From an uncultured Clostridia bacterium (lineage in GTDB: Bacteria > Bacillota > Clostridia > Christensenellales > UBA1242), in the NCBI GenBank assembly GCA_947625955.1, contig CANQQH010000001.1, positions 1 to 38,824 on the forward strand: 38,824 nucleotides of DNA. The letters are read 5' to 3'. Shown piece after piece: positions 6,279 to 38,824 of this stretch. The stretch's first letter is position 1. Each line of letters begins with the position of its first letter. The notes beneath the pieces were generated by a model, which saw only the letters and a list, made by a program, of their open reading frames with translations, was not told the origin of the DNA and did not search any database. The position numbers were made by a program, and so were the translations under genes.

Positions 6279-6384
6279 TCACAAAAAATACCATTTTCAC
6301 CCTATTTCAAAGTCAAAAAACGCAATATTTTTGAAAAACGCCATATTTTTGGGCTGTTTTAACGCTATTTTGAGTTAAATTTGC

Positions 6385-6416
6385 GAAAAATAAACACCCG
6401 ACTGGTGTCGGGTGTT
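6385..6416 (-). terminator. Intrinsic terminator of the parA-parB operon
   Basis: 10-bp stem AACACCCGAC (6393-6402) / GTCGGGTGTT (6407-6416), 4-nt loop. On the minus strand it is followed by TATTTTT, and it starts 15 nt past the parB stop. Confidence 0.8.
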
Positions 6417-6431
6417 ACTTCATTAATAGTT

Positions 6432-13725: not shown

Positions 13726-13829
13726 AGTTTTTTTTCCTCTTTCTTAGGTTTTGAAAAATATATATAATTTATACCTGGTTTATTAATTACTTGACGAAAT
13801 TTGGCTTTGCCATTAAAATTAATAATAAG

Positions 13830-17923: not shown

Positions 17924-17927
17924 TAAA

Positions 17928-18071
17928 ATGGTAGCATTGATGATAATTCTTTGTGCTGTTTCGCTAACTGCATCAATATTTTTGATTGCAAGATTCGGCA
18001 TCAAAAAGAAAGAAAACGACGAGTTTGTGAGCGCAGATTTGAAAGAAGAGGCAGACTCGCAAGAGAAATAG
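17928..18071 (+). CDS. Unlisted 47-aa single-TM micro-protein
   Basis: MVALMIILCAVSLTASIFLIARFGIKKKENDEFVSADLKEEADSQEK. The ATG lies 4 nt after the cca TGA and 7-8 nt after GAGG. It is below the track's length cut-off. Confidence 0.4.
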   Translation: MVALMIILCAVSLTASIFLIARFGIKKKENDEFVSADLKEEADSQEK

Positions 18072-18119
18072 ATTCGACAATATTTAATAAAATAAAGCAA
18101 AATATAACATAATAGTAGT

Positions 18120-19358: not shown

Positions 19359-19577
19359 CATTGGTTTTTGGCGTGGTTAAAGTGAACCTAAAACACCTCT
19401 AAAATGGTATGACGAAAAACACAAAAACTGGCGGCAGAATATTTAGGCAAAAAACATCGCTTTTGCTGTGACGCGCTGAGGCAGAATTTATTAATAAAAT
19501 ATATAAAAATCGGGTGGAAAAATTACTTGTTTTTTCACCTGATTTTATGTTAGAAAAAACGATAAAAATTGAATTTT

Positions 19578-19610
19578 TTGAGCCCAATTAATTGGGCTCA
19601 AATTTTTTTA
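19578..19610. terminator. Perfect-palindrome terminator between vanW-like gene and the giant gene
   Basis: TTGAGCCCAATT/AATTGGGCTCAA (19578-19601) followed by ATTTTTTT, with an A/T tract upstream as well. Confidence 0.7.
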
Positions 19611-19638
19611 TTTTTCTTGGAATTGAGGCCTATTTTGT

Positions 19639-19667
19639 TTGACTAAAAACGCGAAAAATGGTAGTAT
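19639..19667 (+). promoter_or_regulatory. Candidate promoter of the giant gene (extended -10 type)
   Basis: TTGACT (19639-19644), 17-nt spacer ending in TGG, then TAGTAT (19662-19667). This would give a ~250-nt leader before ATG 19924. Confidence 0.35.
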
Positions 19668-19923
19668 AGTAGCAAGTGGTGAAGGCCACGAAAAATATCA
19701 GGTTTTTTGAGAAAAAAGTTTTGCCAAAAACGGCACGCAATTTTCCTCAAAATGGGCACATGAAATTCGAAAAACAGCGTAAATTTCACAAAGTTTATGG
19801 TGTTTTTGCGATTTTCAGACCTTTTGTGTGCTTCGTTTATCGACAAGATGTACCAAATCTTGCAAAGCGAAGAGCAAATAAAAACAAAACCTGGTGAAAA
19901 AACTAAATCCAAAGGTGGAAATT

Positions 19924-22900
19924 ATGAGCGAACTTAATCAAGAGCAAACCCAGGAACAAAATCAAGAAAAGAAAGGGATGAAGAAAGGTGCAAAGATAAC
20001 TCTGCTTATTTTGAGCCTGCTCTTCTTCCTTGGCGCGATCATCACGCCTATTTTGATGTTCACGCTTCCTGGAAAAACAAATGTGCGGGAAACGCAAATT
20101 GGCGGATTCATTGTCAGGTATGACGCAGCCGCCAATGTGTATGACATCTTCCGCTATGTTGGCGACGACGTTGACGTTGTTGTTCCAGCGGAACTTGACG
20201 GCATCCCTGTTCGAGATATTTTGAGCGGGGCGTTTAGTGCAAGTTCTCGTGACGCGAACAGAAACATCAAAAGCGTCGAAATCGAAGATGGCATTCGAAA
20301 TATTGGCGACGGAGCTTTCAAAGACTGCGAAAGTTTGGAAAAACTTGTCTTCCCACAATCAGTTGGTGAAGTTGGTGCAGGTGCGTTTGAAGGCTCAGGT
20401 GTTCAAGAACTTGTTGTTGAAGACGCCTCACGCCTTCGCTTCAAGTCGGGTGCTTTGGAAGGTGCCGAACACCTCAAAAAGTTGACGATCACCGGCGCTG
20501 GTGAAGACAACACGATCGGCAAGGACTCGCTTGGCGACCTTTCTGGTAACATCACTGACGTTGAAATTGGAAAAGACGTTAACATTGGTGACGGCGCGTT
20601 TGCCGGCGCATCAAACCTCACAACGCTCTATGTTTACAATTACAGTGCTCTTGAAGTTAACGAATCTGCATTCGTTGGCTCAAACATCAACACCTTGGTT
20701 ATATATCATGCCGAAGACACTCTCACAAGCGACTTCATGCAAAAGTTCTTCGACGCAAAACTCAGCCGCCTTGCAAATGTTGTGCTCGATCCAGACATCA
20801 ACAAAATTGGCGCTGAGGCATTCATTAGATTCCCAACCCTTATTAGTGTTACTGTTGGAAACGGAACAAAGATTGATATCTCATCATTCCCAGCAGCAGC
20901 AGACATGCAAAAAGATTTCAGAATTCACTTCTCGGGCGAGGGTGAGTTCTCACTTGAAATCACACACGACACAAGGAGACCTTCCTACGACACCATCACC
21001 AGTGCGTTTGCAAACCTCTTTGCCGACTTCAACAACATCACAAGCTTGAAGCTCGACGAGAACTTCAAAGCAATAAGCAACAACGCGTTTGCAAACTTCA
21101 CATCTCTCAAACTTCTCGACTTTGGTGAGAGAAGCATGGTTGAAATCATTGCCGACAACGCCTTCGGTTCATATGATAGCGTTGAGGGCAGACTTGACGT
21201 TTTGGGCCCACGCGCCGACCACAACGCAAAGATGGATGCAACAATCGGCAGCGCAATCAACCCTGTTTATGCCGCATTCAACAAACAATATATTGATTAT
21301 TATAAGAGAAATTCCTATAACGGAAGCAGCGAACTTGGATATTATAGAGTTTCTCTCGACTACACCCACAAGTTCAGCGACAGCGATGTTATACCTGGTG
21401 CAGCTGTTCCTGAGATTTTCCCACTCACACTCTATGTTGGCTATGAAGATGTTCTTCTCGACAAGCTCCCAATCGGTGGTACCGACGACACAAGGTGGTA
21501 TGTTGAAGGCTACACCCTTGTTGGCTGGAAGCTCGCCGATGGTTCAAGCCTTTCAAACCAAACAATCGGCGACCTTGGTGAAGTTATCACTCTCTATGCT
21601 GTTTGGATCAGCGGAAACTACACAAGGTATAGAATTGAATACTATGTTCAAGACGTGTTCGACGAAGGCCTCTATGCAATCTATGGCAACCCATTTGTTG
21701 AAGGTGAGGGCGGACCTGTTTATAAGACCGGCACAACCGACACCATCATCGATGTTATCACCGACCCTGAGTATCAAAGCTATGTTGCAGAAATTGAAGG
21801 CTTCACATTTGATAGAAACAACAATCAAAATGTCACAAGAATTTCAATCAATGCGAACGGACAATCAGTTTTGAAACTCTACTACACAAGAAACAAATAT
21901 AAACTCTACTTCGACTTCAACGACAAAGCTAGCGACGGCTTCACTCCTGTTGACGAGAGCAAACTTTCTCTTGGCGACATCAAGACCGACGGCAATGGCA
22001 GATATATTGAAATCAAATATAGAGCACCATACACCGATCTTCTTGACCTTTCAAACGCAAGACCTGGTTATAGGTTCGATGGCTGGTCGTTCGACCCTGA
22101 GAACCGTGACCCAGCAAGAGTTGTAAACCCAACAACAACTCACGATTTTGCATCAGACAAAACTCTCTATGCAACCTTCACGGCTCAAACCACGACCTAT
22201 AAAATTGAGCACTATCTCGAAAACATCGCGGATGAGGGCTACACTCATGAGCCAAGGCTGGACAGCACCGTTCAAATTGCAACCGACGCAATGGTGAACC
22301 AAGAGGCTGACCATATCAACGGCTTCATCTTTGATACCGATAACGAACTCAACAATAATGGTGTGAGAGCGCATGGCTTCTTTGAAGGTGAAGAAGGGCA
22401 GACTATTATCAAATTATATTATAATAGAGAGCGCTACACCCTCGTGTTCGATGTGAACAAGGGCACAGGCTCAACCGAAATCAACGTTCAAGAAGGTTCA
22501 AGCCTTCGCCATGAGGACGTTAAGTTTGGCGACAAGTATTCAAACTTCTTCCCAACACTCACTCGCGATGGCTACACCTTTGACTCATTCAACACTCTTG
22601 CTGACGGAAGGGGCACAAAAATCACCAACGCTACTCTTGTTAATGAAGAAGCAATCGTTGGTAAAACTCAAACTCTCTATGCGATTTGGAAGGCGAACAC
22701 CTACACCGTTGTTTACCACGCAAACAACAGCTCGCTCGAAGAATTGACTGAAAGCGAAACAAAGACCTTTGATGTTTCGTTCAACCTCAAAATGAAGCCA
22801 GCAAACTTCGTTTATGCAGGTCACACATTCAAATATTGGTGCTTGAACCCAAGCGACGACGCGGGCTACGCTCACTATGACCAAAATCAAGAGGTAAGCA

Positions 22901-25900
22901 ACCTTTCAACTGAGGCAAACGGCACTGTTGACCTCTATGCAATCTGGACTGCTAACAATTATTATATTGTTTATCATGGCGGCGACCAAGGCGCATATGC
23001 TGAGCCTGAAATGGAAAGAACAACTGCAACATTTGGCGAGAGCTTCACATTGCGTGAGAACACCTTTGTGTTTGCGGGTCACAAGTTCCTTGGTTGGAAC
23101 AAAAACGAATCTCAAGCAAAAGAGGGCAGAGTTGAATATACTGATGGCGCAACAATTGAAGCAAACCTTTGCGAAGATTCTGGCGGCATTGTTAACCTCT
23201 ATGCTGTTTGGGAAGTGTTCAAGTTCACTCTCACCTATGATAAGAACGGCGGCAACATCAAGGGAGGCGCTGCAACCACACAAGAAGTGAACTACACCGA
23301 CACCATCAACCTTGCAAATGGTGACGAGCTCTTCGAACGCCCAGGCTACACTTTCGACGGCTGGTCAAGAAACAAAGCCAGCAAGCAATATAGCAGCAAT
23401 GCAAGCATCAAGATTTCTGAAATTGCAGGCAACACTCAAAATGGTGAGGCCATCACTTTCTATGCAATTTGGAAAACAATTTCATATAAATTCACAATCC
23501 ACAGCGGCCTTGAACAAGACAAAACAGCTGAAAGACACTTCACTGTTGAAGACTCAATTGACAGGGAGAGCCTTGAAGCCGAGTTTGGCAACACTGGCTA
23601 CTCAATCATCGGCTTTGCAACAAGCAAGGGCGGGGAGAACGTTCCAGGGCTTGAAGCAAACATCAGTCAATGGATTTTGAGCCAAGAAACAACCGAATTT
23701 GAGATTTGGGCACTTTGGACAGCAAATGTTGCAACCAACTATAACATCCAAATCTTCTTTGAGGAAGTTATTGAGAGCGGAAGGACTCAAACAAGATACC
23801 CACAAGCTCCAAACATCACCGACACAGAAACGGGCATGACTGGCAAATATGCAACACTCTCCGACGAAGCTGCAAGAGCAAAATATGCTTCTCAATATGC
23901 AAGCTTGTTCGTTGGTCATGTTCTCGACGAGGAAAAGAGCGAAACAAACAAGCAAATTGAAGGCAATGGGCAAACAACCCTCAAACTCTACTATAAACTT
24001 GCAACATATAATGTTAAGCTCAAAGAAAACAAAGCAGAACTTTCAACTGGTGCTATCACCGGCTTTGTTAACGACCAAGAAGTTCAAGTAACATATAAGC
24101 TCCCATATGGCAGTTTGCCAGAAACAGGGGATGTTAGCCGCCAAGGCTACACCTTCAAGGGCTGGTCAAAGACTGCAAATGGCGACGAAATGGTTACTAA
24201 CACAACAATCTATGAAACTGATAGCGACAGCGAACTTTTCGCAATCTGGGAAAAGAAGTCAATCGAATATTCAGTTGAATACTACAAGAAGAGCCTTGCC
24301 GGCGAATACGAGAAAGACATGGTGGAGAGCTACACAGCAAGTGCGCTTGTTGATACTCTTGTCACCGCGCAAAGCAAGACTTTCGACGGCTTCACACTAA
24401 ATGAAGAAGCCGAGGGCACACTCACATCGTCGAACAACAACGCCGAGGGTGTTACTCTCAAACTCTTCTATGACAGGCAAAACATCACTCTTGAATTTGT
24501 CTATGACGACGAGAGTGGTGAAGAACAAGTTGCAGGGCAATCAACAAAGCCATTTGGAACAAAAGAGAGCGTTGAATCTCTTGATATTCCAACCCCTAAA
24601 AAAGACGGCTACACCTTCGAATATTGGGTTGACGGCAACGGCGAGCAAATCAGCGAAGTTGAGTTCAAGACCAACGCCGAGAAGCCAAAAGCTCAATTTA
24701 GAGAGAACGCCTACACCATTGAAATTGAAGAAAATGGTGGAACTCTCGCAATCAATAATAAGGTGAGGATGACCGCGCTATATGTTTGGGAAGGCAACAG
24801 AATTGTTGTGAAATATACCGAGACCCTCGACCTTTCTGAAATTGCAAACAAACTTACAAGAACGGGCTACACCCTTCTTGGATTTGACTATACACAAAAA
24901 CTTGACGACCCAACCTATTCAGTTGAGGCCGACATTTCAAGCTTGCAAGTGGAAGATGTTGTTAAGGCTGCGCCAAACGCAGAGTCTCCATATCCTGAAA
25001 CAACAATCAACCTCTATGCAATTTGGCAAATAAATTCCTACACAATCACTTATAGATATGGCAGCGAAGGCGATGTTGTGGATGGACCTTTTGTGTATGA
25101 CACACTCCATGAACTTAAAGGAACCGACACATTCACTCGCACAGGCTATTCATATACCCACTGGAAAGAAGTTGGCGGGGAAGAAGGCCGCTATGAAGCA
25201 AGCACATCAATCAAGATTCCTGCTCACAACATGATTTTGACCCCTGACTGGATTGCAGCAAAGTTTGATGTTAAGTATGACGCGAACGCAAAAACATACC
25301 ACAAAGATAGTTCGCCAATCACCTCACGCGTTGAGGGTGCAACTCAAAACACAACCTTGACCTATGACGGAAGCGGCACAATCAAGCAAAACGGCTATAT
25401 CCTCAAAGGCTACACTTTCCAACATTGGAACTCAAAGGCTGACGACAAGGGCACAATCTACACCGAGAATCAACCTCTTGAAAGCGGCGCTATCAATCAA
25501 TTGTTTAACGATGCTGAGGCAGGTGTTGTAACTCTCTATGCAATTTGGCAGAGAAACACCTATGACCTTGTTATCGACGCAACAAGCAACACAAGCGCAA
25601 AACCATCAACCGCAACAAAGAAACTCACCTATGACGAAGAGTTCCTTTTGACCGACTCAATCCCTGAGCTTGCAATAACAGCAAAGGGCTATAAGCTCAA
25701 AGGCTACAACACCAACAAAGAGCAAGCAATTGCTGGAAATGTTGAGGACGGCTATTCAGCTGAAAACCTCAAAGTTGGCGTAAGAATCTTCAACCCAACA
25801 CTCAATGAGCAAAATCAATTTGTTCTCTATGCTGTTTGGGAAGAATCGGGCGATGTTGAATACTATATTGAGCACATCAAGGAAGACCTCACTGGTGGCT

Positions 25901-28900
25901 TCACAATCATTGATAAAGAAACAGCCTATGGCTTTGTTAATGCAAAAGGAGAGGCAACACCAAGGTCGTATCCTGGCTTCACCTATGCAAAGGGTCATGA
26001 GGGCGAAAAACCCGATGGCCAAATCGTTGCAGAAGGCGAGCCACTTACCCTCAAACTCTTCTACACAAGAAATACCTACACCGTTCACTTCGACCTCAAC
26101 GATTCGGGCAAGAGTGGAACAGTTAGCGGCGCATATAACGACATTCTTGAAGTGAAGTTTGAGCAAGTTATCAACGATAAGAGCGCGATCCCACAAATAA
26201 CCAAGAAAGGCTATAACTTCCTTGGCTGGTTCACCGAAAGAACTAATGGCGACGAGCTCGAAGCAGAAACAACCTACACTTGGGCAGACGAATCCACAAA
26301 AACATTCTATGCTCACTGGGAAGCAACAACCGCCAATTATAGAGTTGAGCACTATTTGCAACAGCTCGATGGCGAATATCCAGCAAGTGTGAGCGATCCA
26401 CAATATTATGACATCAAGAGTGACACAACCGACACTTCGATTACTCTTGGCTCAATTCAAAAAGAATTCGACGGCTTTGAATATAACCATTCAATCCCAC
26501 CAGAGCTTGGCAACATTGATGGCGACGGCAACAAAACAATCAAACTCTACTATCAAAGAAAGACCTATTCTCTTGAAATCCAGCTTGAAGCAGGCATCAA
26601 GGGTGTGACCGCCACAATCAATCCAGAAGCTGCAAGCTCAAGCAAACTCGTTTATGAAGGGGTCAAGTTTGACGCAAGCGTAACTCTTGAAGCTGAGCTT
26701 GCTTCAAAGGGCTACACCTTCGACGGCTTCTATGAGCAAGGTCAAGACAACAAGTTCATGGAAGGCTCAACCTTCAAAATGCCAAACCGCAACCTCACAC
26801 TCGTTGCAAAGGCAATTGAGAAGACCTATAACATCACCTTCGACGGCAACGGCGCAGACGCTGGCAGCGAAACTGTTTCGTTCACCAAGAAATACACCGA
26901 GAGCCTCACAACTCCATCAGCTGCTGCGTTCACCAAGACCGGCTATACTCTTGTTGGCTGGGCACTTGACACAGCTGCATCAAGAGCACAATGGGGCGTT
27001 AGTGCTGAAACAAGCGTGAAGGCAATTGTTGATGCAAAGAACACCGACCTCACCGACATCACGGTTTATGCTGTGTTCAGCCCAATCACATTCACCATTA
27101 TCTATAATAATAATGGCGGCAGCGGCGACATGGCAAGAAGCGTGTTCACCTATGACCAAGACGCGTTCCTTTCTGAGTGCACCTTCACCAAGACCGGCTA
27201 CACATTTGAATACTGGACAGCAGGCGCCGAGGAGAGCGACAAGCTCTATGACGACCGCGAAAACATCAAAAATAAATATGACACAAAGCAAGAAATAACA
27301 ATCTATGCTCACTGGAAAGCAAAAGACTATGTTGTAACCTTCGATTCCAACTATCAAGGCGGAACACAGGAAACAACAAAGCACTTCACATTTGATAGCA
27401 AGTCAAATCAAATGGCAAGCGCGCTTTCACGCACTGGCTATAACTTCAAAGGTTGGGCACTAAATCAATATGCAACGTCGGCCGACTTTGCGGCAGATGA
27501 AGTGCTTGAAGACAACACAATCTCTCCAAACGGCGACGCTGTTAGAGTCTATGCTGTTTGGGAAGCACACACAACAATTGTTACGTTTGAAGGCAACGGG
27601 GCAGAAGAGGGCAACATGCTCCCTCAAACTTTGACCTATGGCAAAACAAACGCCCTCAAACAAAAAGAATTTATCCGCGCGGGCTACAAGTTCATCGGTT
27701 GGACCGAGGATCAAGAGAAAGCTTCTCGCGGAGAGTTTGACTATGCCGACATGGCAAACGTTAACAACAAGCTCTATCGTGCAAACGAAGAGGGCACCAA
27801 CGGTGAGCCTGTAACACTCTATGCTGTTTGGGAAGCTTTGGACGGCATCACTTATAAGGTTGAGCACTGGTTCGAAGTTCTCAACGAGGACGAGCCAGAT
27901 GCAGCCATCAGCTTTGCTAAACTTCCAACCCAGGCCGACGACGAACTCACCGGCAAAACTGGCGAAATGGCAACCGCAAGCCATAGGACCGTAAAGGGCT
28001 TCCGCTATGAAGCCAACTACTCAAATGGCGACTATGTTGCCAAAGAGAGCGGCGAAATCCTTGGAAACGGCACCCTCGTTTTGAAGGTTTACTATTTGAG
28101 AGAAACCTACACTATCACCTTCGATAGCAACGTTAAGGGCGACCTCACCGGTTCAATTGGTGAGCTTCCAGGAAGCGTTGAACTCAAATTCGAGGAAAGC
28201 TATAAGAAAGTCTTGGCAGCCGTAATGACCCGCGAGGGCTATGAGAATGCCAAGTGGTATCTTGATGCCGACCTTGAAAGCGAAATTTTCGCAGAAACCA
28301 AGTATGACCCAGACAATGGCACAACCGTTTATGCAAAATGGGAAGCACAAGATGTTAACTATACAATAGTTTATAAAGTTGAGCAGCTCAATGGCACTTT
28401 CGAGGAAAGTGAAGTTCCTGCTAGCGATAAAGCAGACTCAAAACCTGTTGTTGTTCCAAGCAAAGACCTTGGCGACGTTGCTGGCAACTATAACGTTCCA
28501 GGAAGCAAGAGCCAAGTTATCCGCGCCGACGGAAAAACTAGAATTGAGTTTGAATACACTCTCAAAACAATCAAGCTCACTCTCACAAAAACAACGGGCG
28601 TTGAGACTTTCACAGCCTCAGCAGAAGAATATGAACTCGCTTTGACTGGCGACTACTATATGGTGAAGATTGGTGCAACCGTCACAATCGTTGCAACCGC
28701 ATCAAACGGCTACCATATCACTGGCTACACAAAGGCCGGCGAACCATATAGCACGCTCACATTCACCATGGGCTCAGAGGAACTCACAATCGTTGCAACT
28801 GCCGAAGAATATGAATACACAATCGTGTATCATGCTGGCAAGGGCACAGAGAGTTCGTCAATTGCAAACGGAACCGTTAAATACACAAAACAACTTGAAC

Positions 28901-31900: not shown

Positions 31901-34900
31901 GCAGCGAAGAAGAAGGCGAAAGCTTCACTATCACAACAAGCGATAGCGCAACAACCGACAAAGAGGTAACCGCTTCTCAAAACAAGAAGACCGGTTTCAC
32001 CTATAATGCTGAAAAAACAACGGCAGACGGAAAGGAAAAAGGCACTGTCACTGGTGACGGCAAACTTGAACTCACGCTCTACTATTCGCGTGATAAGTAT
32101 TCTGTTTCCTTCGATAAGAACACAGTTGGCACAACTGGCGACATCACCAACGACAAAGAGCTTCCATCACTTGAAGGTGTCAAGTTCGGCTCAAAGATTG
32201 GCGACAGACTCCCAGAAGCTCTTGAAAGAAATGGTTATGACTTCGCTGGTTGGTATGTTGAGCCAGGCAACTATTTGACCCCAGACTCAACAATGGATTG
32301 GGGTTCAGACACCGTTATCCATGCTGGCTGGACTGCTAAACAAAACACCAAGTATGCAATTGAATACTATATTGAAAGCGAGGGCGGGGAAGACGACGGC
32401 TTCACATTCCATTCAAAGGATGAGAACCTTGAAGGCACAACCGACCAAGTTGCACCAGTTGTTCAAAAGGAAATCAAGGGCTATCACTATGATAGTGCAA
32501 ATGAAAAGAATAAAGACAACGCCACAACAAAGGTCAATGGTAACGGCACAACAACTCTCAAAGTTTACTACGTGAAGAACGGCGGCATCAAAGTTGAGGT
32601 TAACGACCAAGAACTTGATGGCGAATATAAGACTGGCGATGAAGTAAAGATTCCAGCTGGAACTGTTACCCCTGAAACCGGCAAGCACGTTTCGGGCTAT
32701 GAATCTTCAACTCACCCTGATGTTCAGTTCGAAATCGACCCTGAAACTGGCGACGCAACATTCAAACTTCCAGAACTTGGTGAGGGCGAAACATTCGAGG
32801 TCGCTCCTAAGTTCGAAGACAACAAATATTTCGTGAAATTCAATGGCAACGGCGCAAGCAATCTTGAAGCAATGCCAAACCAAGAGTTCACCTATGGAAC
32901 AGAGGACAAACTCAATGCTAACCTCTTTGTTCGCGACGGCTATGACTTCGGCGGCTGGGCAGAAAGCGCTGAAAAAGCTGCCAGCGGCGAAGTGAAGTAT
33001 CAAAACGAAAACGAGCACATCCTCAACCTCAGCGAAACACACAACGCTGTTGTTGAAATCTTCGCAATTTGGACAGCAAGACAGTTCACTGTTCACTTCC
33101 ATGCAAACGGCGGAAGCGAAACAATGGATGACGAAACCTACACATTCATGAGCGAGAGCGAAACACTCAAAACAAATGAATTCACGCTCGTTGGTCATCA
33201 CTTCATGGGTTGGTCAGTTGATGCAGATGCAGCTTCAGTAACCTATGAAGACAATGCAAAGATCAACCTCATCACAAACTATAAAGCAGAGCTTGACCTC
33301 TATGCTGTTTGGGAAGCAAACAAAGTAAATGTTAAGTATGATGCAAACGAAGGAAGTGGCTCGGTTGAGGGCAGTGAACACACCTATGGTGAATCAAGCA
33401 CTCTTAACGATGCCGGAACTCTTTCACGCCCAGGCTACACCTTTGAGGGTTGGAACAGCGACCAAGAAGCTGCAAAGCGCGGCGAAGTTGAATTTGGAAA
33501 TGGTGAAACAATCACCGATCAATTCAAGAATGATGATGGTGATGAAGTAACACTCTATGCTGTTTGGAAAGCAAGAAATGACACTAAGTTCACAATTGAA
33601 TACTATCTTGAAGACCTCGATGCAACAAACGAGCTTGCTGGAACATATTCAAAGGTGGCTTCGCTCACCGAAGAGCTTGAGGGAACAACCGACACAACCT
33701 ATAACGTTCTCACAGCACCAACTTCGAAGTATTTCCAAGATGGCGTGAAGAAAGAGGGCGTTCTCCCTGGCTATAAGTTCACAAGTGTTGATGGTCAAGA
33801 GAAGCTCTCAGGCGTTATCTCAGCAACTGAGAAACTCGTTTTGAAAGTTTACTTCACTCGCGACACCGTTTCATTGAAGTTCGCAGCCGACAGCGAGAAT
33901 GAAGAAAATGCTGGCAAGCACCCAGAACAAAGCGTTCTCTTTGGCGCAAAGGTAGATTTGCCAACAAATGAGTTTGTCAAAGACGGCTACACCTTTGCTG
34001 GTTGGAGCGACGGAAAGCAAACTCATCAACCACAAACCAAGTTTGAAGTTCCTGGCGAGGGTCAAACCTTGACCGCCACCTGGACTGAAAACTCCTACAC
34101 AATTGCCTATGAGAAAGGAAATGGTGATTCTGGCGAAGAGACCTCTCAAACCGTTCACTATGAAGACGGCAGCGTTGCTCTCTCTGACGGCTCACACATG
34201 ACCAAGCTCGGCTACCACTTCGTTGGCTGGACAATCCAAGGCACTGAAAATGTTGTTAGCGGAACAATCAGCGTGAAAGAGCTGCTTCAAAAGAGCACAA
34301 TTTCTTCACCATATGCAAACAACTCTGAAATCACTCTTGTTGCGAAGTTCGATCCAAACACCAACACCAAGTACACAATCAAATATTGGAAGATGAGATA
34401 TACCGGTGATGGTTGGTTAGCAACTGAGCGCACAACTGAAAGACCTATTGCAACCATAACATCCGAAGGCACAACCGACGATAGCGTTTCTGTTTCACCT
34501 GCTTATAACTACACCGGCTATAAGACCCCAGACGCACAACAAATCACCATTGATGCCGACGGCAACACAACGGTTGACTTTGAATATTTGCCTCAAAGAA
34601 TAACCATCAGCTTTGAAGCCAACGACCCAAGCGGCTCGGGCGCTTCATTGCAAGGCGAAATGACAGCTGAAACCTATGCCTACGACGCAAACGCAACTAT
34701 CAAAACGAACGCATTTAAGTTCGAAAGCAACACCTACACATTCCTCGGCTGGTCAAAGACCGTTAGCCCTGCACTCAACGCTGCAATAGACTTTGGTGAC
34801 AATGACCCTATCAACTCAGTCATCGAGAGCATGAAGTCAAAAGATCTTGAACTTTCGCTCACTCTCTATGCTGTTTGGAAAAAGGGCGAGTCGGGCGTTA

Positions 34901-37900
34901 CAATTCAAGTGAAAACGCCTAACCTCGGCGTTGACGGAACCCCTAACGGGCAATACACAACAACAGCAAAGAATGTTGAAGTTAGAACTGGCGATCCATT
35001 CAACCTCAACGACGAAAAGATTGCCGAACTTCATCTCATCCCAGAAGGCTTTGAGAAGGGCAGCGTTCAAGGTGGAGAGATTGATAAAGTTGAAGGAAAC
35101 AAAACAATCGTTTTGACCCTTGTTCGCAAGACCTACACCGCAACCTTCAAATCTGGCGCAGTTGGCGTTGAAGACGGCAACCACACTCTCACTGTTCACT
35201 ATGGCGCAACTCTCAATCAAGCAATCGCTAACTACAAGATTGCAGAGGATAGCTATGGAATCTATCCATGCCCATATGAATACACCGGCCACAAGTTCTC
35301 AACTTGGAAAGTTGGCGGCGGGGATGTCAAGGGTTCTCCAACTCTCATCCAAGGCAACATCGATGTTACTGCCGATTGGGCAGCAATCACCCTTGTTGTT
35401 GAATACGCAGCCGACGGCGGTTCGTTCGTCAGCGGCAAGTCAAGCAAAGATGCAAGAGTAACCACTAACTACGACGCTGAAATTTCTCTTCCAAAAGCAA
35501 ACGAACTCTACACCAAGACTGGCTACACTCTCGAAGGCTGGAAGTATAACGAGGGCACCAAGCTTGCCTTCGGCGAAGACGGCTCAAAGAGCGTTAAAGT
35601 CAGCGAGATTGCCGATGCTCTTGGCCTCAACAAGGCAGCAAACGACGGCGAAACTCTCACTTTGACAGCTGATTGGAGAGAACACACCTACACTGTTCAC
35701 ATCGACTCTAACTTTGGCGAATTTGCCGCAAAAGGCAAACTTGAATTTCAAGACACCAAGAGCAATGACTTCGTTCTCAAATACACAGAGTCGGTAGTTC
35801 TCAACACAATTATCAAAGAGATCTCTCTTGAAGGTCACGATTTTGTTAACTTCTCATATGGCGGCAACGCAAAAGCTGTTAACTCTACCTTCACTCTTGC
35901 AGACTCTATCTCGAAACTCACAGCGCAAGACCAGGCAACTGTTAACCTTGTTGCCAACTGGTCAATCCACAGCTACACTCTCACAATAACAACGAACGCA
36001 GGCGAGCATGGAAAGGTTGAACTCTCAGGCGTTGACGGCCTCACAACAACCCTTGCCTATAACGCTTCGTTCACTGCGACAGCAACTGCAAACAAGCTTT
36101 CAGGTTATCACTTCGTTGGCTGGTATGAAGGAACCGACAACGAGGGCAGGCCTCTTGGCGCAGATGCAACTCTCACAATGAACATGCCTGCACTTGGCGA
36201 GGATGGCGCGACCTATAACGTTTATGCTTACTTCGAAGTTGACACCTATAATGTTGAATTCTCAATCACAGCCTACACCAACGACGAAACCGAGCAACTT
36301 GTTGGCGAATTCTCAGGCAACAAAGCAACGCTCAAAAAGCTTGTTGGTGGTGCGGCTCAGGAAGAAGCAGTTCAAACAATTAAATTTGGCGAACTATTCA
36401 CAGTAACCAAGGACGGCATTCAAAAAGGCTTTGACTTCATGGGTGTCAAGATTAATGGCAACCCAGTGGAAGGTAGTGCAGACTCGGGCTACAAAGTTCC
36501 TGCTCAAAGCGAGAACGGCGCAACAATCCATATTGAAGCAAGATTCTATGCTGTTGATTTTACTCTCTCATTCACTTCAACCGAAGAGGCTGAAATTCAA
36601 ACAAAAGGCTCACTGAAAGCAAGCTTCACAAAGACCTATAACATCTCCGACTTTGTTGAATCTGCAACAAGGAAAGGTTATGTTATCGACGGCTTCGATT
36701 TCAACAATAAGAACTATAAAGAGTCATTCACTCTCAACGACGAGTTCTTCGCTGAAATGGAAGACTATGGAACAAGCATCGAGTTCAAGGCTCACTGGAA
36801 AGCCGTTGAATACACCATCACCTATGATGCAAATGGTGGAAGCGGCACAGCAACCTCAACTCTTGACTACGCAACCGCTGGCACTCTTCACGACGGAACT
36901 GGCTTCACAATGTTTGGCTATAAGATTGTTGGCTGGTCAAAAGATAGCGGCAAAAACACAACAACTCTTGCCCTCAAAGCAAATGTAACAGGACAAGCTG
37001 TTGTTGAGGCTTGCGGCATCAGCCCAGAGCAAAGCGAGATCACTCTCTATGCTGTTTGGGAAGCAAAGGATGTAACCTTGACATTTGAAGCCCCAGACGC
37101 AAACGACAATGCAAGCTCATGGACAAATTGGAGCAATTCATTCGTTGAAGACGGAAAAGGCTTCATCTTCGCCACCAAGTTCGACGAGGCAATCCCAACT
37201 CTTCCAGAGCCTTCACGCACAGGCCACTCATTCCTTGGCTGGTTCGATACAGATGAAACCAAGATTGGCGAGAAAGTCAATGTTGAAGGGGGCACCTATC
37301 ATGCCAACTGGAAAGTTAACAAGTATAATGTGAAGACCTATGTTTATGCTCAAACTGGCAGCGAAGCAGCTGTTCTAACCAAAGCAGCAGCAAAGATCAC
37401 TGGCGAAACAAGCGTTGACTTTGGCAAAACAACAACTCTCACAGCAAATGCAAGCGAAGGCTACACATTTGTTGGCTGGTATGAAGGCAATGGCGTTAAC
37501 AGCGAGCAACTCACATCTAATGTTGAAGCCAATGTTCTCACAACCGACGAAATGGGTGTTGACGGCCTTGAATACACAGCTTTGGTGAAGGCAAACGCCT
37601 ACAAAATCACCGTTAACGCAGCTGGCGGACGCATTGCTCTCAGAGAGGGTGCTTCAAACCTTGGAACAACCCAAATCGATGCCTACTGGAACAGAGCGCT
37701 CAAACTTGAAGACAAAATTTTGAGCATCACAAAAGATGGCTACACATTCTTAAATGTTAGAAGCATTGACTCAAAGACCTATGGTCTTAGTGACGAAATT
37801 TTGAACCTTACTTCAAATGATGGTGGGGAAGTTGTGCTCACAGCTCAATGGCAAATCCACACCTACAACTTGAAAGTTCAAACTGAGGGCGGAACAGCGG

Positions 37901-38824
37901 CTAGCAAGGCATATATCGCATTTGCTGGCGAGGCCGTTGAAGGAACAACAACAACCGAGAAGACTGCGCAATATAACGCACAATTTAGAGTTGTTGCAGT
38001 CCCTGAGGCAGGCTACCACTTCATGGGATGGTATGCAACCACCACAGACGGCGGCAACTATAAGAGCGGCAGCACGACCTACACAGGCAACATGCCACCT
38101 CTAACCAACAACGGAGACGAATATGTTCTCATCGCCGTGTTCGAAATCGACACCTACACGCTCGAGCTCCATGTTGTTGCCTTTGGTGGCGACCAAGCGC
38201 TTGAAGGGGAATTTGGCAACACAGCATTGCCAAAAACAAGCTCTGTCAAGTTCGGCGACGATGCTCAAATCACCGCAACCGCAGCAGACGGCTTCACATT
38301 CAAGGGCTGGTTCAAGAACTCTAACTGCTCCGGAGGTGCAGTCAACACCGGAAAAGAATTTGAGTTCCACATTGACGACCAAGGCGAGAACGGAGCAACA
38401 ATCGACCTCTATGCGAAGTTTGTTGCCAACACCTACACCGTTTCCTACGACGCTAACTATGGCGATAAAGTAGGCGGCTCAGGTTCAACCGACACAACAA
38501 CTCACATCTTTGGTCAAAAATCTCAACTTGCACAATGCGGCTTCACCCTTCCTGGCTACTACTTCAAGGGTTGGAGCGAAACACAAGTCGAGGGCGAGAA
38601 ACTCTATGAGGGTGGCGAAGCTCTCGAAACCGACCTCAGCACAGTAGAAGGCGACGAAAAGACCCTCTATGCAATCTGGGGCGAGAATCAATATTCAATC
38701 AAGTATAACGGGCTTGACGATGTAACCGAGACCAAGGGCTACACAGAGTCCTTCACACCAAATAATGGCGCAACCCTTTCACAAGTTGAAGGCAAGCACT
38801 TCATTGGTTGGGCTCTCACCGACG
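19924..38824 (+). CDS. Giant modular cell-surface protein, 5' part only (6300 codons visible, 3' end beyond the window); putative adhesin or fibre
   Basis: I translated frame +1 by hand from ATG 19924. An SD-like AAGGTGG ends 5 nt upstream, and an in-frame TAA at 19879-19881 bounds the ORF. The product starts MSELNQEQTQEQNQEKKGMKKGAKITLLILSLLFFLGAIITPILMF... and runs without a stop to ...EGKHFIGWALTD at 38823. All + strand track ORFs from 20237 to 38473 are in frame +2 and none is in frame +1, as expected for one unterminated ORF. Confidence 0.95.
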   Translation, partial: MSELNQEQTQEQNQEKKGMKKGAKITLLILSLLFFLGAIITPILMFTLPGKTNVRETQIGGFIVRYDAAANVYDIFRYVGDDVDVVVPAELDGIPVRDILSGAFSASSRDANRNIKSVEIEDGIRNIGDGAFKDCESLEKLVFPQSVGEVGAGAFEGSGVQELVVEDASRLRFKSGALEGAEHLKKLTITGAGEDNTIGKDSLGDLSGNITDVEIGKDVNIGDGAFAGASNLTTLYVYNYSALEVNESAFVGSNINTLVIYHAEDTLTSDFMQKFFDAKLSRLANVVLDPDINKIGAEAFIRFPTLISVTVGNGTKIDISSFPAAADMQKDFRIHFSGEGEFSLEITHDTRRPSYDTITSAFANLFADFNNITSLKLDENFKAISNNAFANFTSLKLLDFGERSMVEIIADNAFGSYDSVEGRLDVLGPRADHNAKMDATIGSAINPVYAAFNKQYIDYYKRNSYNGSSELGYYRVSLDYTHKFSDSDVIPGAAVPEIFPLTLYVGYEDVLLDKLPIGGTDDTRWYVEGYTLVGWKLADGSSLSNQTIGDLGEVITLYAVWISGNYTRYRIEYYVQDVFDEGLYAIYGNPFVEGEGGPVYKTGTTDTIIDVITDPEYQSYVAEIEGFTFDRNNNQNVTRISINANGQSVLKLYYTRNKYKLYFDFNDKASDGFTPVDESKLSLGDIKTDGNGRYIEIKYRAPYTDLLDLSNARPGYRFDGWSFDPENRDPARVVNPTTTHDFASDKTLYATFTAQTTTYKIEHYLENIADEGYTHEPRLDSTVQIATDAMVNQEADHINGFIFDTDNELNNNGVRAHGFFEGEEGQTIIKLYYNRERYTLVFDVNKGTGSTEINVQEGSSLRHEDVKFGDKYSNFFPTLTRDGYTFDSFNTLADGRGTKITNATLVNEEAIVGKTQTLYAIWKANTYTVVYHANNSSLEELTESETKTFDVSFNLKMKPANFVYAGHTFKYWCLNPSDDAGYAHYDQNQEVSNLSTEANGTVDLYAIWTANNYYIVYHGGDQGAYAEPEMERTTATFGESFTLRENTFVFAGHKFLGWNKNESQAKEGRVEYTDGATIEANLCEDSGGIVNLYAVWEVFKFTLTYDKNGGNIKGGAATTQEVNYTDTINLANGDELFERPGYTFDGWSRNKASKQYSSNASIKISEIAGNTQNGEAITFYAIWKTISYKFTIHSGLEQDKTAERHFTVEDSIDRESLEAEFGNTGYSIIGFATSKGGENVPGLEANISQWILSQETTEFEIWALWTANVATNYNIQIFFEEVIESGRTQTRYPQAPNITDTETGMTGKYATLSDEAARAKYASQYASLFVGHVLDEEKSETNKQIEGNGQTTLKLYYKLATYNVKLKENKAELSTGAITGFVNDQEVQVTYKLPYGSLPETGDVSRQGYTFKGWSKTANGDEMVTNTTIYETDSDSELFAIWEKKSIEYSVEYYKKSLAGEYEKDMVESYTASALVDTLVTAQSKTFDGFTLNEEAEGTLTSSNNNAEGVTLKLFYDRQNITLEFVYDDESGEEQVAGQSTKPFGTKESVESLDIPTPKKDGYTFEYWVDGNGEQISEVEFKTNAEKPKAQFRENAYTIEIEENGGTLAINNKVRMTALYVWEGNRIVVKYTETLDLSEIANKLTRTGYTLLGFDYTQKLDDPTYSVEADISSLQVEDVVKAAPNAESPYPETTINLYAIWQINSYTITYRYGSEGDVVDGPFVYDTLHELKGTDTFTRTGYSYTHWKEVGGEEGRYEASTSIKIPAHNMILTPDWIAAKFDVKYDANAKTYHKDSSPITSRVEGATQNTTLTYDGSGTIKQNGYILKGYTFQHWNSKADDKGTIYTENQPLESGAINQLFNDAEAGVVTLYAIWQRNTYDLVIDATSNTSAKPSTATKKLTYDEEFLLTDSIPELAITAKGYKLKGYNTNKEQAIAGNVEDGYSAENLKVGVRIFNPTLNEQNQFVLYAVWEESGDVEYYIEHIKEDLTGGFTIIDKETAYGFVNAKGEATPRSYPGFTYAKGHEGEKPDGQIVAEGEPLTLKLFYTRNTYTVHFDLNDSGKSGTVSGAYNDILEVKFEQVINDKSAIPQITKKGYNFLGWFTERTNGDELEAETTYTWADESTKTFYAHWEATTANYRVEHYLQQLDGEYPASVSDPQYYDIKSDTTDTSITLGSIQKEFDGFEYNHSIPPELGNIDGDGNKTIKLYYQRKTYSLEIQLEAGIKGVTATINPEAASSSKLVYEGVKFDASVTLEAELASKGYTFDGFYEQGQDNKFMEGSTFKMPNRNLTLVAKAIEKTYNITFDGNGADAGSETVSFTKKYTESLTTPSAAAFTKTGYTLVGWALDTAASRAQWGVSAETSVKAIVDAKNTDLTDITVYAVFSPITFTIIYNNNGGSGDMARSVFTYDQDAFLSECTFTKTGYTFEYWTAGAEESDKLYDDRENIKNKYDTKQEITIYAHWKAKDYVVTFDSNYQGGTQETTKHFTFDSKSNQMASALSRTGYNFKGWALNQYATSADFAADEVLEDNTISPNGDAVRVYAVWEAHTTIVTFEGNGAEEGNMLPQTLTYGKTNALKQKEFIRAGYKFIGWTEDQEKASRGEFDYADMANVNNKLYRANEEGTNGEPVTLYAVWEALDGITYKVEHWFEVLNEDEPDAAISFAKLPTQADDELTGKTGEMATASHRTVKGFRYEANYSNGDYVAKESGEILGNGTLVLKVYYLRETYTITFDSNVKGDLTGSIGELPGSVELKFEESYKKVLAAVMTREGYENAKWYLDADLESEIFAETKYDPDNGTTVYAKWEAQDVNYTIVYKVEQLNGTFEESEVPASDKADSKPVVVPSKDLGDVAGNYNVPGSKSQVIRADGKTRIEFEYTLKTIKLTLTKTTGVETFTASAEEYELALTGDYYMVKIGATVTIVATASNGYHITGYTKAGEPYSTLTFTMGSEELTIVATAEEYEYTIVYHAGKGTESSSIANGTVKYTKQLELSNGTGYTYEGHLFGGWSLTEEDQSVDFMGGTSYAGSALIKKAIEKSTNTGYDDTTIDLYAVWGADSYRVTYKNTGDDGKSDITNSYQFGSRQSALGANTFSKKGYHFEEWKDSNGETRYPVDQEFTIPAKNLTLEPVWIANTYYVHFEPGAGVTGGPMSDQEFTYGVSKNLSWNTYSKKGYTFGGWEYNGQTFADNDSVRDLTDKNGETITLNAKWNPATSSYKIYHVVENKKTTVPGHGFMPEGDYYIYQEEPLTGTTDSIVDATVTSAVYGKIAGFTYSEELTSALGKKSGQITSDDSLELILYYTRDQITITLKPDADSGVSGDQVELQFYFEESVVLPYAGFSKTGHKFDHWKEESSETTYQKDAQFNVPAEDITLVAIFVPEQYEVTFENHDETGSSRKETVTYGTDMQQLNSLNIPKRTGYKFLGYFDQEQDGTKYFDADGSVALDGGKWVILGETTLHAQWEAIEYIIYFDITSGATPGTKQINAKYMEDLQDLEAVPTRTGYDFAGWFYQGTKYFDGEGKAVEKDVNGKKWDVALSVHMQAQWTAHEYDVHYDRNGGLGGTDMADSHHVYGTKSKLSDCTYTKEGYTFGGWALTQELANQKQKAFDDGAEVETLVSENGGSQTLYAIWNANKYNVTLDNQSATVLGQTSIEVTFGEKSAKITRLPSKTGYTLLGYFTTPEVGDQDSAVQYFDGTGAQIKEWDKVVGAEGFTLYAHFAAANVNYTIKYYTQDKDGSGWTYMAGQDETKQASADTTITVELDSNKFTGFSAPTESLTLEVKADGSAEFEARYTRNKYTLTISRENGKGVNNVVSSKGSKQSGTAGGTDSIVYEIFYDVEFTLTASMKTGHTFLGFYQGEGKVSTDSQLTYTATMGTEAINIEARSRINTYTLKVYEHKDSEKFVTKTLNYDEEYALSNEAGSDIRVERAGYTFKGWSTTKTGVATYTEGNTVSMLTAQDGGTYELWAVWEVGTSTYTVHHIYEGLTDDDYTGSGSEEEGESFTITTSDSATTDKEVTASQNKKTGFTYNAEKTTADGKEKGTVTGDGKLELTLYYSRDKYSVSFDKNTVGTTGDITNDKELPSLEGVKFGSKIGDRLPEALERNGYDFAGWYVEPGNYLTPDSTMDWGSDTVIHAGWTAKQNTKYAIEYYIESEGGEDDGFTFHSKDENLEGTTDQVAPVVQKEIKGYHYDSANEKNKDNATTKVNGNGTTTLKVYYVKNGGIKVEVNDQELDGEYKTGDEVKIPAGTVTPETGKHVSGYESSTHPDVQFEIDPETGDATFKLPELGEGETFEVAPKFEDNKYFVKFNGNGASNLEAMPNQEFTYGTEDKLNANLFVRDGYDFGGWAESAEKAASGEVKYQNENEHILNLSETHNAVVEIFAIWTARQFTVHFHANGGSETMDDETYTFMSESETLKTNEFTLVGHHFMGWSVDADAASVTYEDNAKINLITNYKAELDLYAVWEANKVNVKYDANEGSGSVEGSEHTYGESSTLNDAGTLSRPGYTFEGWNSDQEAAKRGEVEFGNGETITDQFKNDDGDEVTLYAVWKARNDTKFTIEYYLEDLDATNELAGTYSKVASLTEELEGTTDTTYNVLTAPTSKYFQDGVKKEGVLPGYKFTSVDGQEKLSGVISATEKLVLKVYFTRDTVSLKFAADSENEENAGKHPEQSVLFGAKVDLPTNEFVKDGYTFAGWSDGKQTHQPQTKFEVPGEGQTLTATWTENSYTIAYEKGNGDSGEETSQTVHYEDGSVALSDGSHMTKLGYHFVGWTIQGTENVVSGTISVKELLQKSTISSPYANNSEITLVAKFDPNTNTKYTIKYWKMRYTGDGWLATERTTERPIATITSEGTTDDSVSVSPAYNYTGYKTPDAQQITIDADGNTTVDFEYLPQRITISFEANDPSGSGASLQGEMTAETYAYDANATIKTNAFKFESNTYTFLGWSKTVSPALNAAIDFGDNDPINSVIESMKSKDLELSLTLYAVWKKGESGVTIQVKTPNLGVDGTPNGQYTTTAKNVEVRTGDPFNLNDEKIAELHLIPEGFEKGSVQGGEIDKVEGNKTIVLTLVRKTYTATFKSGAVGVEDGNHTLTVHYGATLNQAIANYKIAEDSYGIYPCPYEYTGHKFSTWKVGGGDVKGSPTLIQGNIDVTADWAAITLVVEYAADGGSFVSGKSSKDARVTTNYDAEISLPKANELYTKTGYTLEGWKYNEGTKLAFGEDGSKSVKVSEIADALGLNKAANDGETLTLTADWREHTYTVHIDSNFGEFAAKGKLEFQDTKSNDFVLKYTESVVLNTIIKEISLEGHDFVNFSYGGNAKAVNSTFTLADSISKLTAQDQATVNLVANWSIHSYTLTITTNAGEHGKVELSGVDGLTTTLAYNASFTATATANKLSGYHFVGWYEGTDNEGRPLGADATLTMNMPALGEDGATYNVYAYFEVDTYNVEFSITAYTNDETEQLVGEFSGNKATLKKLVGGAAQEEAVQTIKFGELFTVTKDGIQKGFDFMGVKINGNPVEGSADSGYKVPAQSENGATIHIEARFYAVDFTLSFTSTEEAEIQTKGSLKASFTKTYNISDFVESATRKGYVIDGFDFNNKNYKESFTLNDEFFAEMEDYGTSIEFKAHWKAVEYTITYDANGGSGTATSTLDYATAGTLHDGTGFTMFGYKIVGWSKDSGKNTTTLALKANVTGQAVVEACGISPEQSEITLYAVWEAKDVTLTFEAPDANDNASSWTNWSNSFVEDGKGFIFATKFDEAIPTLPEPSRTGHSFLGWFDTDETKIGEKVNVEGGTYHANWKVNKYNVKTYVYAQTGSEAAVLTKAAAKITGETSVDFGKTTTLTANASEGYTFVGWYEGNGVNSEQLTSNVEANVLTTDEMGVDGLEYTALVKANAYKITVNAAGGRIALREGASNLGTTQIDAYWNRALKLEDKILSITKDGYTFLNVRSIDSKTYGLSDEILNLTSNDGGEVVLTAQWQIHTYNLKVQTEGGTAASKAYIAFAGEAVEGTTTTEKTAQYNAQFRVVAVPEAGYHFMGWYATTTDGGNYKSGSTTYTGNMPPLTNNGDEYVLIAVFEIDTYTLELHVVAFGGDQALEGEFGNTALPKTSSVKFGDDAQITATAADGFTFKGWFKNSNCSGGAVNTGKEFEFHIDDQGENGATIDLYAKFVANTYTVSYDANYGDKVGGSGSTDTTTHIFGQKSQLAQCGFTLPGYYFKGWSETQVEGEKLYEGGEALETDLSTVEGDEKTLYAIWGENQYSIKYNGLDDVTETKGYTESFTPNNGATLSQVEGKHFIGWALTD
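19996..20061 (+). other. N-terminal TM helix / signal anchor of the giant protein
   Basis: Residues 25-46 (ITLLILSLLFFLGAIITPILMF) follow a Lys-rich segment (EKKGMKKGAK). Confidence 0.8.
20176..21168 (+). repeat. BspA-type LRR region of the giant protein (residues ~85-415)
   Basis: Repeats such as VVVPAELDGIPVRDILSGAF, IKSVEIEDGIRNIGDGAFKDCESLEKLVFPQSVGEVGAGAF, ITSLKLDENFKAISNNAFANFTSLKLLDF. This is the same repeat type as the 13830-16448 protein. Confidence 0.75.
21343..38824 (+). repeat. Array of ~50 InlB-B-repeat (Flg_new and divergent Flg_new_2-like) modules interleaved with ~15 MucBP-like beta modules
   Basis: I counted by hand about 52 G[YH]xFxGW-type motifs, each followed ~30-45 aa later by an [LVI]YA[VI]W-type motif (period ~250-265 nt). 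About 15 modules run from YxxE[HY]Y... to ...LKLYYxRxxY. The exact 19-mer ctctatgctgtttgggaag (LYAVWE) recurs at 23197, 25825, 27817, 33298 and 37045. Confidence 0.85.

Follow-up and report, generated by a model that had tools for sequence, protein, structure and literature searches.

Does a reading frame that fills the last 18.9 kb of a contig without meeting a stop codon represent a real gene, and what would a protein of that size do for its cell? This question is raised by contig CANQQH010000001.1 (assembly GCA_947625955.1) of an uncultured Clostridia bacterium, the whole of which (38,824 bp) was analysed here and is called the window. We found that the frame is a real and conserved gene under purifying selection. 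Its product is likely to be a membrane-anchored cell-surface fibre of about 8,500-11,000 amino acids (aa), for which attachment is the most plausible role. The gene and its ribosome-binding site are located as follows.

19924-38824, + strand: giant coding sequence, complete at the 5' end and open at the 3' end at the contig end; 6,300 codons.
19911-19918, + strand: Shine-Dalgarno sequence AAAGGTGG, 5 nt before ATG 19924.

Frame +1 is free of stops from ATG 19924 to base 38824, that is, over 6,300 codons, which would be expected by chance with a probability of about 1e-148 from the base composition. The other five frames of the same region contain 114-499 stops. The nearest in-frame stop on the 5' side of the ATG is the TAA at 19879-19881. 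The relative synonymous codon usage of the giant frame correlates with that of 10 pooled neighbouring housekeeping genes at r = 0.89, as against 0.27-0.40 for the other frames. Translation, stop statistics and codon usage thus bear out the preliminary description of this DNA, made from the letters alone, which had proposed an ORF (open reading frame) of more than 6,300 aa that starts at this ATG after this TAA and is open at its 3' end. The Shine-Dalgarno-like sequence that it had noted before the start codon was also confirmed; the AAAGGTG within it is invariant in 5/5 lineages. ATG 19924 is the true start: in the alignment, four orthologous genes begin at this same codon, each of them preceded by AAAGGTG. 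The ORF list over the region, as the same description had remarked, shows only shadow ORFs (26 of at least 100 aa in other frames); the giant gene is absent from it because the list omits ORFs running off the end. The accompanying forecast that an annotation would miss the gene is correct for ORF lists of this type but not for gene callers, which do call the orthologous partial genes. The window is the entire NCBI contig, and the neighbouring proteins are all recorded on that one contig; the open 3' end of the gene is therefore the contig end. The visible product has a mass of 695 kDa, is acidic (isoelectric point 4.6) and rich in threonine (10.9%), and contains only nine cysteines.

An assembly artefact, a chimera or a decaying pseudogene, in which the frame stays open through mis-joined repeats or no longer has a function, would be in keeping with a gene that is incomplete at the contig end and inside which most of the relatives' contigs break too. 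The repeats themselves argue otherwise. Pairwise amino-acid identity among the Flg_new-type copies has a mean of 22% and a maximum of 43%, a self-BLAST of the DNA of the gene returned only two high-scoring segment pairs (at most 80 nt, 76-80% identity), and the longest exact repeat measures 23 nt. Because the repeats are diverged and the DNA self-similarity is negligible, collapse or chimerism is no realistic concern in the visible part. Moreover, 18.9 kb run without a stop in host-like codon usage, independent assemblies of different samples agree in colinear order over about 3,000 aa, and the ratio of nonsynonymous to synonymous substitution rates (dN/dS) is below 1 throughout. The worry that the array might be an artefact, raised in the preliminary description, is thereby removed for the visible part. 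We regard an artefactual or decaying gene as extremely improbable and that explanation as effectively refuted already.

The comparison with relatives carries much of this argument. Orthologs were found by a VanW search followed by the contigs of the homologs, and further relatives by an exhaustive HMMER search. In four further uncultured Clostridia lineages, a giant gene directly follows VanW.

L016, NCBI GCA_947595235.1: giant gene of 3,228 aa, running to the contig end.
L017, ENA ERZ28614544 scaffold_195: giant gene of 10,909 aa, lying within a 119,611-bp contig.
L021, JGI 3300024269: giant gene of 4,939 aa, running to the contig end.
L024 and L025, Logan: giant gene of about 2,270 aa, running to the contig end.

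The L017 gene is complete, because coordinate arithmetic places it in the interior of its contig. Five lineages share the order ABC, ABC, SpoIID, LRR_5 protein, CCA enzyme, small peptide, VanW and giant gene. The window protein is colinear with the L016 protein over aa 1-2828 (37.7% identity) and with the L017 protein over aa 5-3236 (38.6%). Since this colinearity extends over everything visible in the L016 and L017 comparisons, the single domains have positional orthologs and the array is old. A word-indexed search with aa 1-480 missed the orthologs and yielded nothing but distant LRR_5 proteins of less than 850 aa. Two further relatives, L003 and L004, were set aside because they carry ordinary proteins of 1,500-1,700 aa rather than giants. 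The domain superfamily is huge: at E ≤1e-3, HMMER with aa 1-1200 matched 151,227 proteins of the library. Few of these are N-terminally colinear with the window protein: P0369 (7,221 aa), P0370 (7,239 aa), P0372 (6,890 aa), P0416 (6,509 aa), a frameshifted 3,631-aa entry (P0388) and a 327-aa fragment. P0388 ends in an Arg/Pro-rich nonsense tail (…RRPVQAEHPGLHRLPYPRERGRR…), which suggests a frameshift or mis-join in the source assembly.

How much of the protein lies beyond the contig can be estimated from these relatives. Window aa 1-2736 match P0369 aa 1-2724, and window aa 5149-5899 match P0369 aa 3931-4665; these offsets point to about 1,200 extra residues mid-stalk in the window protein. 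In P0369, the counterpart of the last visible residue is at about residue 5,060 of 7,221. At least about 2,000 residues are missing, and about 4,600 if the protein is like the 10,909-aa ortholog. The full protein would then have about 8,500-11,000 aa, of which the first roughly 60-75% would be visible. A scan of genome, viral and metagenome contigs with the last 300 aa recovered only relatives at 25-31% identity and one 34-residue fragment at 57%, so these collections do not contain the source; an exact look-up of the 6,300-aa product had no hit. Records of the proteins encoded next to the giant gene were confined to this contig and to Logan fragments of 1.3-1.6 kb. Six independent contigs of related genomes (L016, L018, L019, L021, L024 and L025) end inside the giant gene and those of L022 and L023 just after VanW; only that of L017 holds the gene whole. 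The visible gene of the window has no DNA repeats that would explain such contig breaks.

Selection was estimated on the closest available ortholog pair, L021 and L024, whose synonymous divergence (dS about 0.9) makes the estimates approximate. The dN/dS ratio is 0.11 for aa 1-250 and 0.40-0.67 along the stalk, with 0.21 for VanW. These values point to a strongly constrained head and anchor, and to a stalk that is more weakly constrained but still under purifying selection and fast-evolving, as expected of an exposed spacer.

The N-terminal part of the product consists of three elements.

19924-19995, + strand: N-terminal tail, aa 1-24, predicted to be cytoplasmic; contains the Lys-rich motif KKGMKKGAK.
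19996-20067, + strand: single hydrophobic span I25-L48 (Kyte-Doolittle), probable uncleaved signal-anchor.
20095-21243, + strand: BspA-type leucine-rich repeat (LRR) domain by Pfam LRR_5, about aa 58-440, predicted to be membrane-proximal.

The Lys-rich N-terminus, membrane-spanning segment and BspA-type LRR that had been read from the sequence were all recovered. The Lys-rich stretch is K16-K24, and its KKGMKK-x-AK motif is kept in 10 orthologs; by the positive-inside rule, the tail would face the cytoplasm. I25-L48 is the sole hydrophobic segment in 6,300 aa. Across the 10 orthologs, the best-conserved stretch is aa 21-40, with 68% identity to the window protein, compared with 45-59% in the LRR region and about 33% in the stalk. 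Pfam LRR_5 (PF13306) scored 93.7 bits against a cutoff of 27.7 (E=1e-26), with three stretches within aa 112-400, and LRR_8 gave a sub-threshold match in the same domain.

Whether the hydrophobic span stays in the protein decides whether the product is anchored. A Lys-rich region followed by a hydrophobic one has the layout of a cleaved Sec signal peptide too, in which case the protein would be released or held non-covalently by the wall and would form an extracellular matrix, a sheath or a biofilm scaffold rather than an anchored fibre. The acidic, Thr-rich composition, which resembles that of many matrix proteins, agrees with this, as does the lack of a covalent wall-anchor motif in the visible part and in the complete relatives. 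However, the span is 24 residues long and much better conserved than the stalk, which is unusual for a segment that is to be discarded, and the alignment of the 10 orthologs contains no conserved A-x-A site and has a conserved Pro after the span. A shed product is thus unlikely in our view, and the span probably acts as an uncleaved signal-anchor with its N-terminus inside and its C-terminus outside.

Beyond the LRR domain, the visible protein is a stalk of small domains, as the preliminary description had proposed.

21472-38824, + strand: stalk, mapped with de novo hidden Markov models (HMMs) and Pfam.
21619-35136, + strand: module B, 15 copies (for example, 26329-26568), found with a de novo HMM.

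With iterated HMMs built on the giant protein itself, we mapped at least 67 diverged tandem domains in the stalk: 49 of the Flg_new type, 15 copies of module B and three further domains, each of about 75-80 aa. Of these three, the one at aa 2884-2959 is Flg_new_2, while aa 4222-4296 and aa 5072-5151 were assigned to no family. A partial domain (aa 6253-6300) stands at the contig end. In the Pfam scan of the frame +1 product, Flg_new (PF09479) scored 284.5 and 270.1 bits (cutoff 27) in 24 stretches (11 and 13), and Flg_new_2 scored 63 and 112 bits in seven stretches. The families that had been expected here, Flg_new, Flg_new_2 and LRR_5, are therefore present, Flg_new and LRR_5 far above cutoff. 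The NCBIfam model TIGR02543 (List_Bact_rpt) matched with 97.2 bits against a cutoff of 20.95. The internalin_A model (NF033189) reached 53.1 bits, far under its cutoff of 1600, with the B-repeat region alone aligned, and membership in the class 1 internalins was rejected for this reason. An internal LPETG at aa 1398 lies inside a Flg_new domain, and no transmembrane segment follows it.

Module B has 73-97 aa with the pattern Y-x-I-E-H-Y ... G-F ... L-K-L-Y-Y-x-R and invariably precedes a Flg_new domain. MucBP (PF06458), the fourth expected family, was significant in 0 of 15 copies of module B (best E=0.079, two copies) and is absent from the whole-protein Pfam scan list, so that what is left of that expectation is a likeness to YwfG at the level of the fold. 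Module B matched no Pfam family significantly, a PDB profile search with it gave no sequence match, and profile-profile alignment (hhalign) detected no homology between module B and the Flg_new copies. An AlphaFold2 model of a Flg-B-Flg segment (aa 2047-2296) has a pLDDT (predicted local distance difference test) of 67. In Foldseek searches with this model, YwfG and the InlB B-repeat were the best matches (probability up to 1.0), ahead of Gram-positive pilins and Cna-B, with E-values of 6e-4 to 3e-2 and TM-scores of 0.2-0.3. Against InlB 36-392, the probability was 0.97-1.0, but with E about 0.016-0.03 and a TM-score of about 0.24 for a three-domain query. The model fits a stalk that is a thread of small beta-rich domains.

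The preliminary description had expected a wall anchor at the C-terminus, which lies outside the contig, and we therefore turned to the long relatives. P0369, P0370, P0372 and P0416 share a non-repeat C-terminal region, and their last residues are alike, which argues that these four proteins are complete. None of them has a C-terminal LPXTG or a C-terminal transmembrane segment, and Pfam gave no hit and no wall-binding domain in their C-terminal domain. A C-terminal wall anchor is thus probably absent from the giant protein as well. Since the relatives lack one, the N-terminal span is the likely anchor, and with an N-terminal anchor the LRR domain would form the base of the fibre and the C-terminal domain its tip. 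This polarity would be the reverse of that of the classical LPXTG fibrillar adhesin. The LRR 'head' of the preliminary description is, then, a BspA-type LRR_5 domain indeed, but one that likely sits at the membrane-proximal base and not at the tip.

The C-terminal 275 residues of the relatives are predicted to be all-beta (pLDDT 74, predicted TM-score 0.79), and their top fold matches are all right-handed beta-helices: PL3 pectate lyases, the adhesin PfbA of pneumococci, the lyase RbmB and phage tailspikes. The main role of the protein could accordingly be enzymatic: the stalk would present a pectate-lyase-like or tailspike-like beta-helix far from the cell, and this tip would bind or cut a polysaccharide (plant fibre, mucin glycan or the envelope of another cell), so that the protein would not be a pure adhesin. 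There are precedents, as 'fibrillar enzymes' with Flg_new stalks have been described (10.1101/2021.12.07.471604) and giant proteins have been linked to cell-wall degradation (10.1101/2023.11.21.568195). On the other hand, the fold matches are weak, the tip domain shows no Pfam or catalytic-motif match and is not within the window, and beta-helices of the PfbA kind can be purely adhesive. We consider a mainly enzymatic fibre quite unlikely, and attachment is preferred.

The expression of the gene can be approached through the DNA between VanW and the start codon.

19577-19602, + strand: terminator-like hairpin with a T-run (11-bp stem, 5 GC pairs, T-rich tail), which closes the upstream VanW unit.
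19639-19667, + strand: sigma-70/SigA-type promoter by consensus scan (TTGACT, 17 nt, TGnTAGTAT with an extended -10).
19675-19923, + strand: leader (5' untranslated region) of about 250 nt with conserved blocks, its start placed from the -10 element.

An equivalent of the hairpin is present in L017. Both promoter hexamers and the AAAAATGnTAGTATA block are invariant in five lineages, and the element at 19639-19667 would drive the giant gene as its promoter. The identity per alignment column between lineages is 0.54-0.65 in promoter and leader, compared with 0.33±0.07 for a shuffled null and 0.21-0.55 further upstream. Promoter and leader are kept across lineages whose proteins are merely 38-56% identical. 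An Rfam search of the leader found no family, and RNAalifold gave a weak consensus with an unfavourable covariation term and no convincing conserved fold. No conserved upstream ORF was seen on reading the leader.

These elements can be combined into a model, in which the topology, the extended shape of the fibre, the nature of the missing C-terminus and adhesion itself are proposed on the demonstrated ORF, domains, orthology, synteny, purifying selection and promoter conservation. The giant gene would have a transcript of its own, made from a strong conserved promoter and beginning with a long leader. Export would be co-translational, guided by the Lys-rich tail and the helix of aa 25-48, which would afterwards remain in the membrane, N-in/C-out, with the BspA-type LRR just outside it as the base of the fibre. 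Small beta-rich domains of the Flg_new/InlB-B-repeat, MucBP-like module B and Flg_new_2 types, about 70 of them visible and probably 90-120 (about 100) in the full protein, would be strung into a thread that passes through the wall and beyond it. A distal, non-repeat and possibly beta-helical tip, as seen in the apparently complete relatives, would contact a ligand, and the stalk would serve both as a spacer and as a fast-evolving exposed surface. Attachment might be to other cells, to host glycoproteins or to particulate substrate. As a rough estimate from typical domain sizes, the visible fibre would reach roughly 0.2-0.3 µm if each domain of 80-90 aa spans 3-4 nm. By analogy with the known Flg_new, B-repeat and YwfG/Mub families, we infer adhesion for the window protein and its orthologs.

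Several points weigh against this model. The confidence of the stalk model is moderate, and the beta-helix match is weak (Foldseek E ≥0.016, TM-score 0.2-0.34). With the C-terminus of the giant protein outside the contig, its tip is extrapolated from relatives at 29-34% identity. That the hydrophobic span is retained is argued from how long and how conserved it is and from the lack of A-x-A. Finally, an N-terminal anchor puts the LRR, the usual candidate for ligand binding, in the wall zone, which is unusual for an adhesin. Even so, we judge a membrane-anchored fibre with a role in attachment to be the likely explanation. The adhesin or surface-fibre architecture of the preliminary description stands insofar as the product is an exported LRR and Flg_new repeat protein; its polarity and type of anchor differ.

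A bolder proposal, which we put forward as speculative and somewhat doubtful, is that the gene is the first representative of a separate family of N-anchored giant fibres, passed on vertically in a poorly sampled Clostridia lineage. Such a family would occupy one locus (after VanW, near parAB) and have reversed polarity, with a conserved LRR base, a fast-evolving stalk of about 100 domains including module B, and a beta-helix tip. The 250-nt leader would possibly be a new cis-regulatory element for a 30-kb mRNA.

The remainder of the window holds, upstream of the giant gene, the genes for FtsH, a DUF1256/YyaC-like protein, CvpA, ParB, ParA, rubrerythrin, two ABC exporters and SpoIID, and then those for an 885-aa protein with a transmembrane segment and LRR_5 repeats, an enzyme of the CCA-adding/poly(A) polymerase family and VanW. 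The closest relatives of FtsH are 68-70% identical and the named ones come from Clostridia; the host lineage therefore belongs to the uncultured, sparsely sampled Clostridia. The contig of a relative, L015 (100.8 kb), has the same gene order around FtsH. L015 also carries another large Flg_new gene, of 2,222 aa, on the other flank of FtsH at 17711-22319, and this gene runs off the locus; the 5' end of the window stops short of the equivalent position. Two of the neighbouring products have a transmembrane segment.

13791-16448, + strand: 885-aa protein with the design of the giant in miniature (Pfam, transmembrane segment).
17928-18071, + strand: 47-aa ORF for a peptide with a single transmembrane segment (MVALMIILCAVSLTASIFLIARFGIKKKE...), conserved in position.

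The 885-aa protein has an N-terminal transmembrane segment, one sub-threshold Flg_new match and seven LRR_5 stretches, and translation probably begins at its codon 14, a Met. It is a syntenic companion in all relatives (889-924 aa), and its GC content at third codon positions is 0.34, compared with 0.46-0.48 in its neighbours. The 47-aa ORF has counterparts of 42-49 aa between the CCA enzyme and VanW in L016, L017 and L021 and likely encodes a real small membrane protein that falls below ORF-length filters.

Between CvpA and ParB, a 1.3-kb AT-rich stretch (5115-6431, GC about 0.36) contains a single ORF of 112 aa, for which Pfam gave no hit; the equivalent gap in L015 measures about 590 nt. 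The two ABC-exporter ORFs (9220-10845 and 10791-12659) share 55 nt in the ORF list, where the second begins with GTG. In relatives, the overlap is a few bases, and the second gene probably starts further downstream here as well. A nearby replication origin was considered and found no support: the GC skew is dominated by the composition of the giant gene, and DnaA boxes are not enriched in the window (six found, 8.2 expected).

The giant gene is a well-documented case of a very large bacterial surface protein; that it is internally diverged, colinear in independent assemblies and under purifying selection speaks for a real gene and against an assembly artefact. It does not overturn current understanding. 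Such genes systematically break metagenome assemblies, as the six related contigs that end inside it and the two that end just before it illustrate, and ORF lists that drop edge-running ORFs lose them entirely. New domain families might be defined on module B and on the C-terminal tip domain. The findings suggest that one uncultured Clostridia lineage keeps a gene of 25-33 kb at a fixed locus for an N-anchored fibre of a few hundred nanometres. If this is true, such a fibre would be a major factor in the contact of the cells with their surroundings.

How does the giant protein compare with known systems? BspA-family proteins mediate adhesion and co-aggregation. BspA of Tannerella forsythia resembles the giant protein in having LRR_5 repeats on an exported protein, but the LRR module is the only common part: BspA has about 1,100 aa, comes from a diderm host, carries Ig-like domains beside its LRRs and uses another sorting signal. 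The Mub/MucBP proteins (YwfG and Mub of L. reuteri) are alike in carrying tandem small beta domains on a Gram-positive surface. YwfG has MucBP and Mub repeats, and YwfG and Mub are binding proteins. The tri-domain model matched YwfG chains with a Foldseek probability of 0.92-1.0, although with weak E-values and TM-scores; module B stays under the significance of Pfam MucBP, and Mub proteins are LPXTG-anchored. The Flg_new/InlB B-repeat has a beta-grasp-like fold, and Flg_new proteins are treated as adhesin-like and host-associated. InlB and other internalins share with the giant protein an LRR followed by B-repeat (Flg_new) domains, together with the fold match described above, which is weak in E-value and TM-score. 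They differ in having an internalin LRR rather than a BspA-like LRR_5, and InlB has one B-repeat plus GW modules, compared with at least 49 Flg_new-type domains and no GW modules here.

Flg_new is also a recognised stalk domain of fibrillar adhesin-type proteins (Monzon and Bateman, 10.1101/2021.12.07.471604). The giant protein shares with these proteins a long stalk built of small beta domains in tandem, Flg_new among them, as well as surface export and a putative binding domain. Classical fibrillar adhesins, however, start with a signal peptide, carry their adhesive domain distally in the N-terminal part and end in an LPXTG sortase anchor, while here the anchor is likely N-terminal, the LRR would be proximal and the complete relatives are without LPXTG. 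The giant protein is also about 5-10 times longer than typical fibrillar adhesins.

The closest parallel comes from mammalian gut metagenomes, in the form of Clostridia proteins with lengths of 10,000-30,000 aa, which contain Listeria-Bacteroides repeats and LRRs and were read as adhesion proteins (West-Roberts et al., bioRxiv 10.1101/2023.11.21.568195). The same work reports predicted bacterial proteins of up to 85,804 aa. Placing the window protein in the size class of the largest bacterial proteins, as the preliminary description did, was therefore overstated: 6,300 aa are visible and 8,500-11,000 aa estimated, compared with the reported 30,000-85,000 aa. In length, the syntenic L017 ortholog has 10,909 aa, other relatives 6,509-7,239 aa and the visible window protein 6,300 aa. 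The host group, the Listeria-Bacteroides/Flg_new repeats with LRRs, the proposed adhesion and the fragmentation of assemblies are alike, and the giant gene belongs to this already reported class of giant Clostridia proteins. That class was described briefly, without the signal-anchor, proximal LRR, module B, VanW locus and promoter with leader seen here. What the present locus adds to it is a fixed genomic position, a probable N-terminal anchoring with a proximal LRR, module B, a putative tip domain and a conserved leader.

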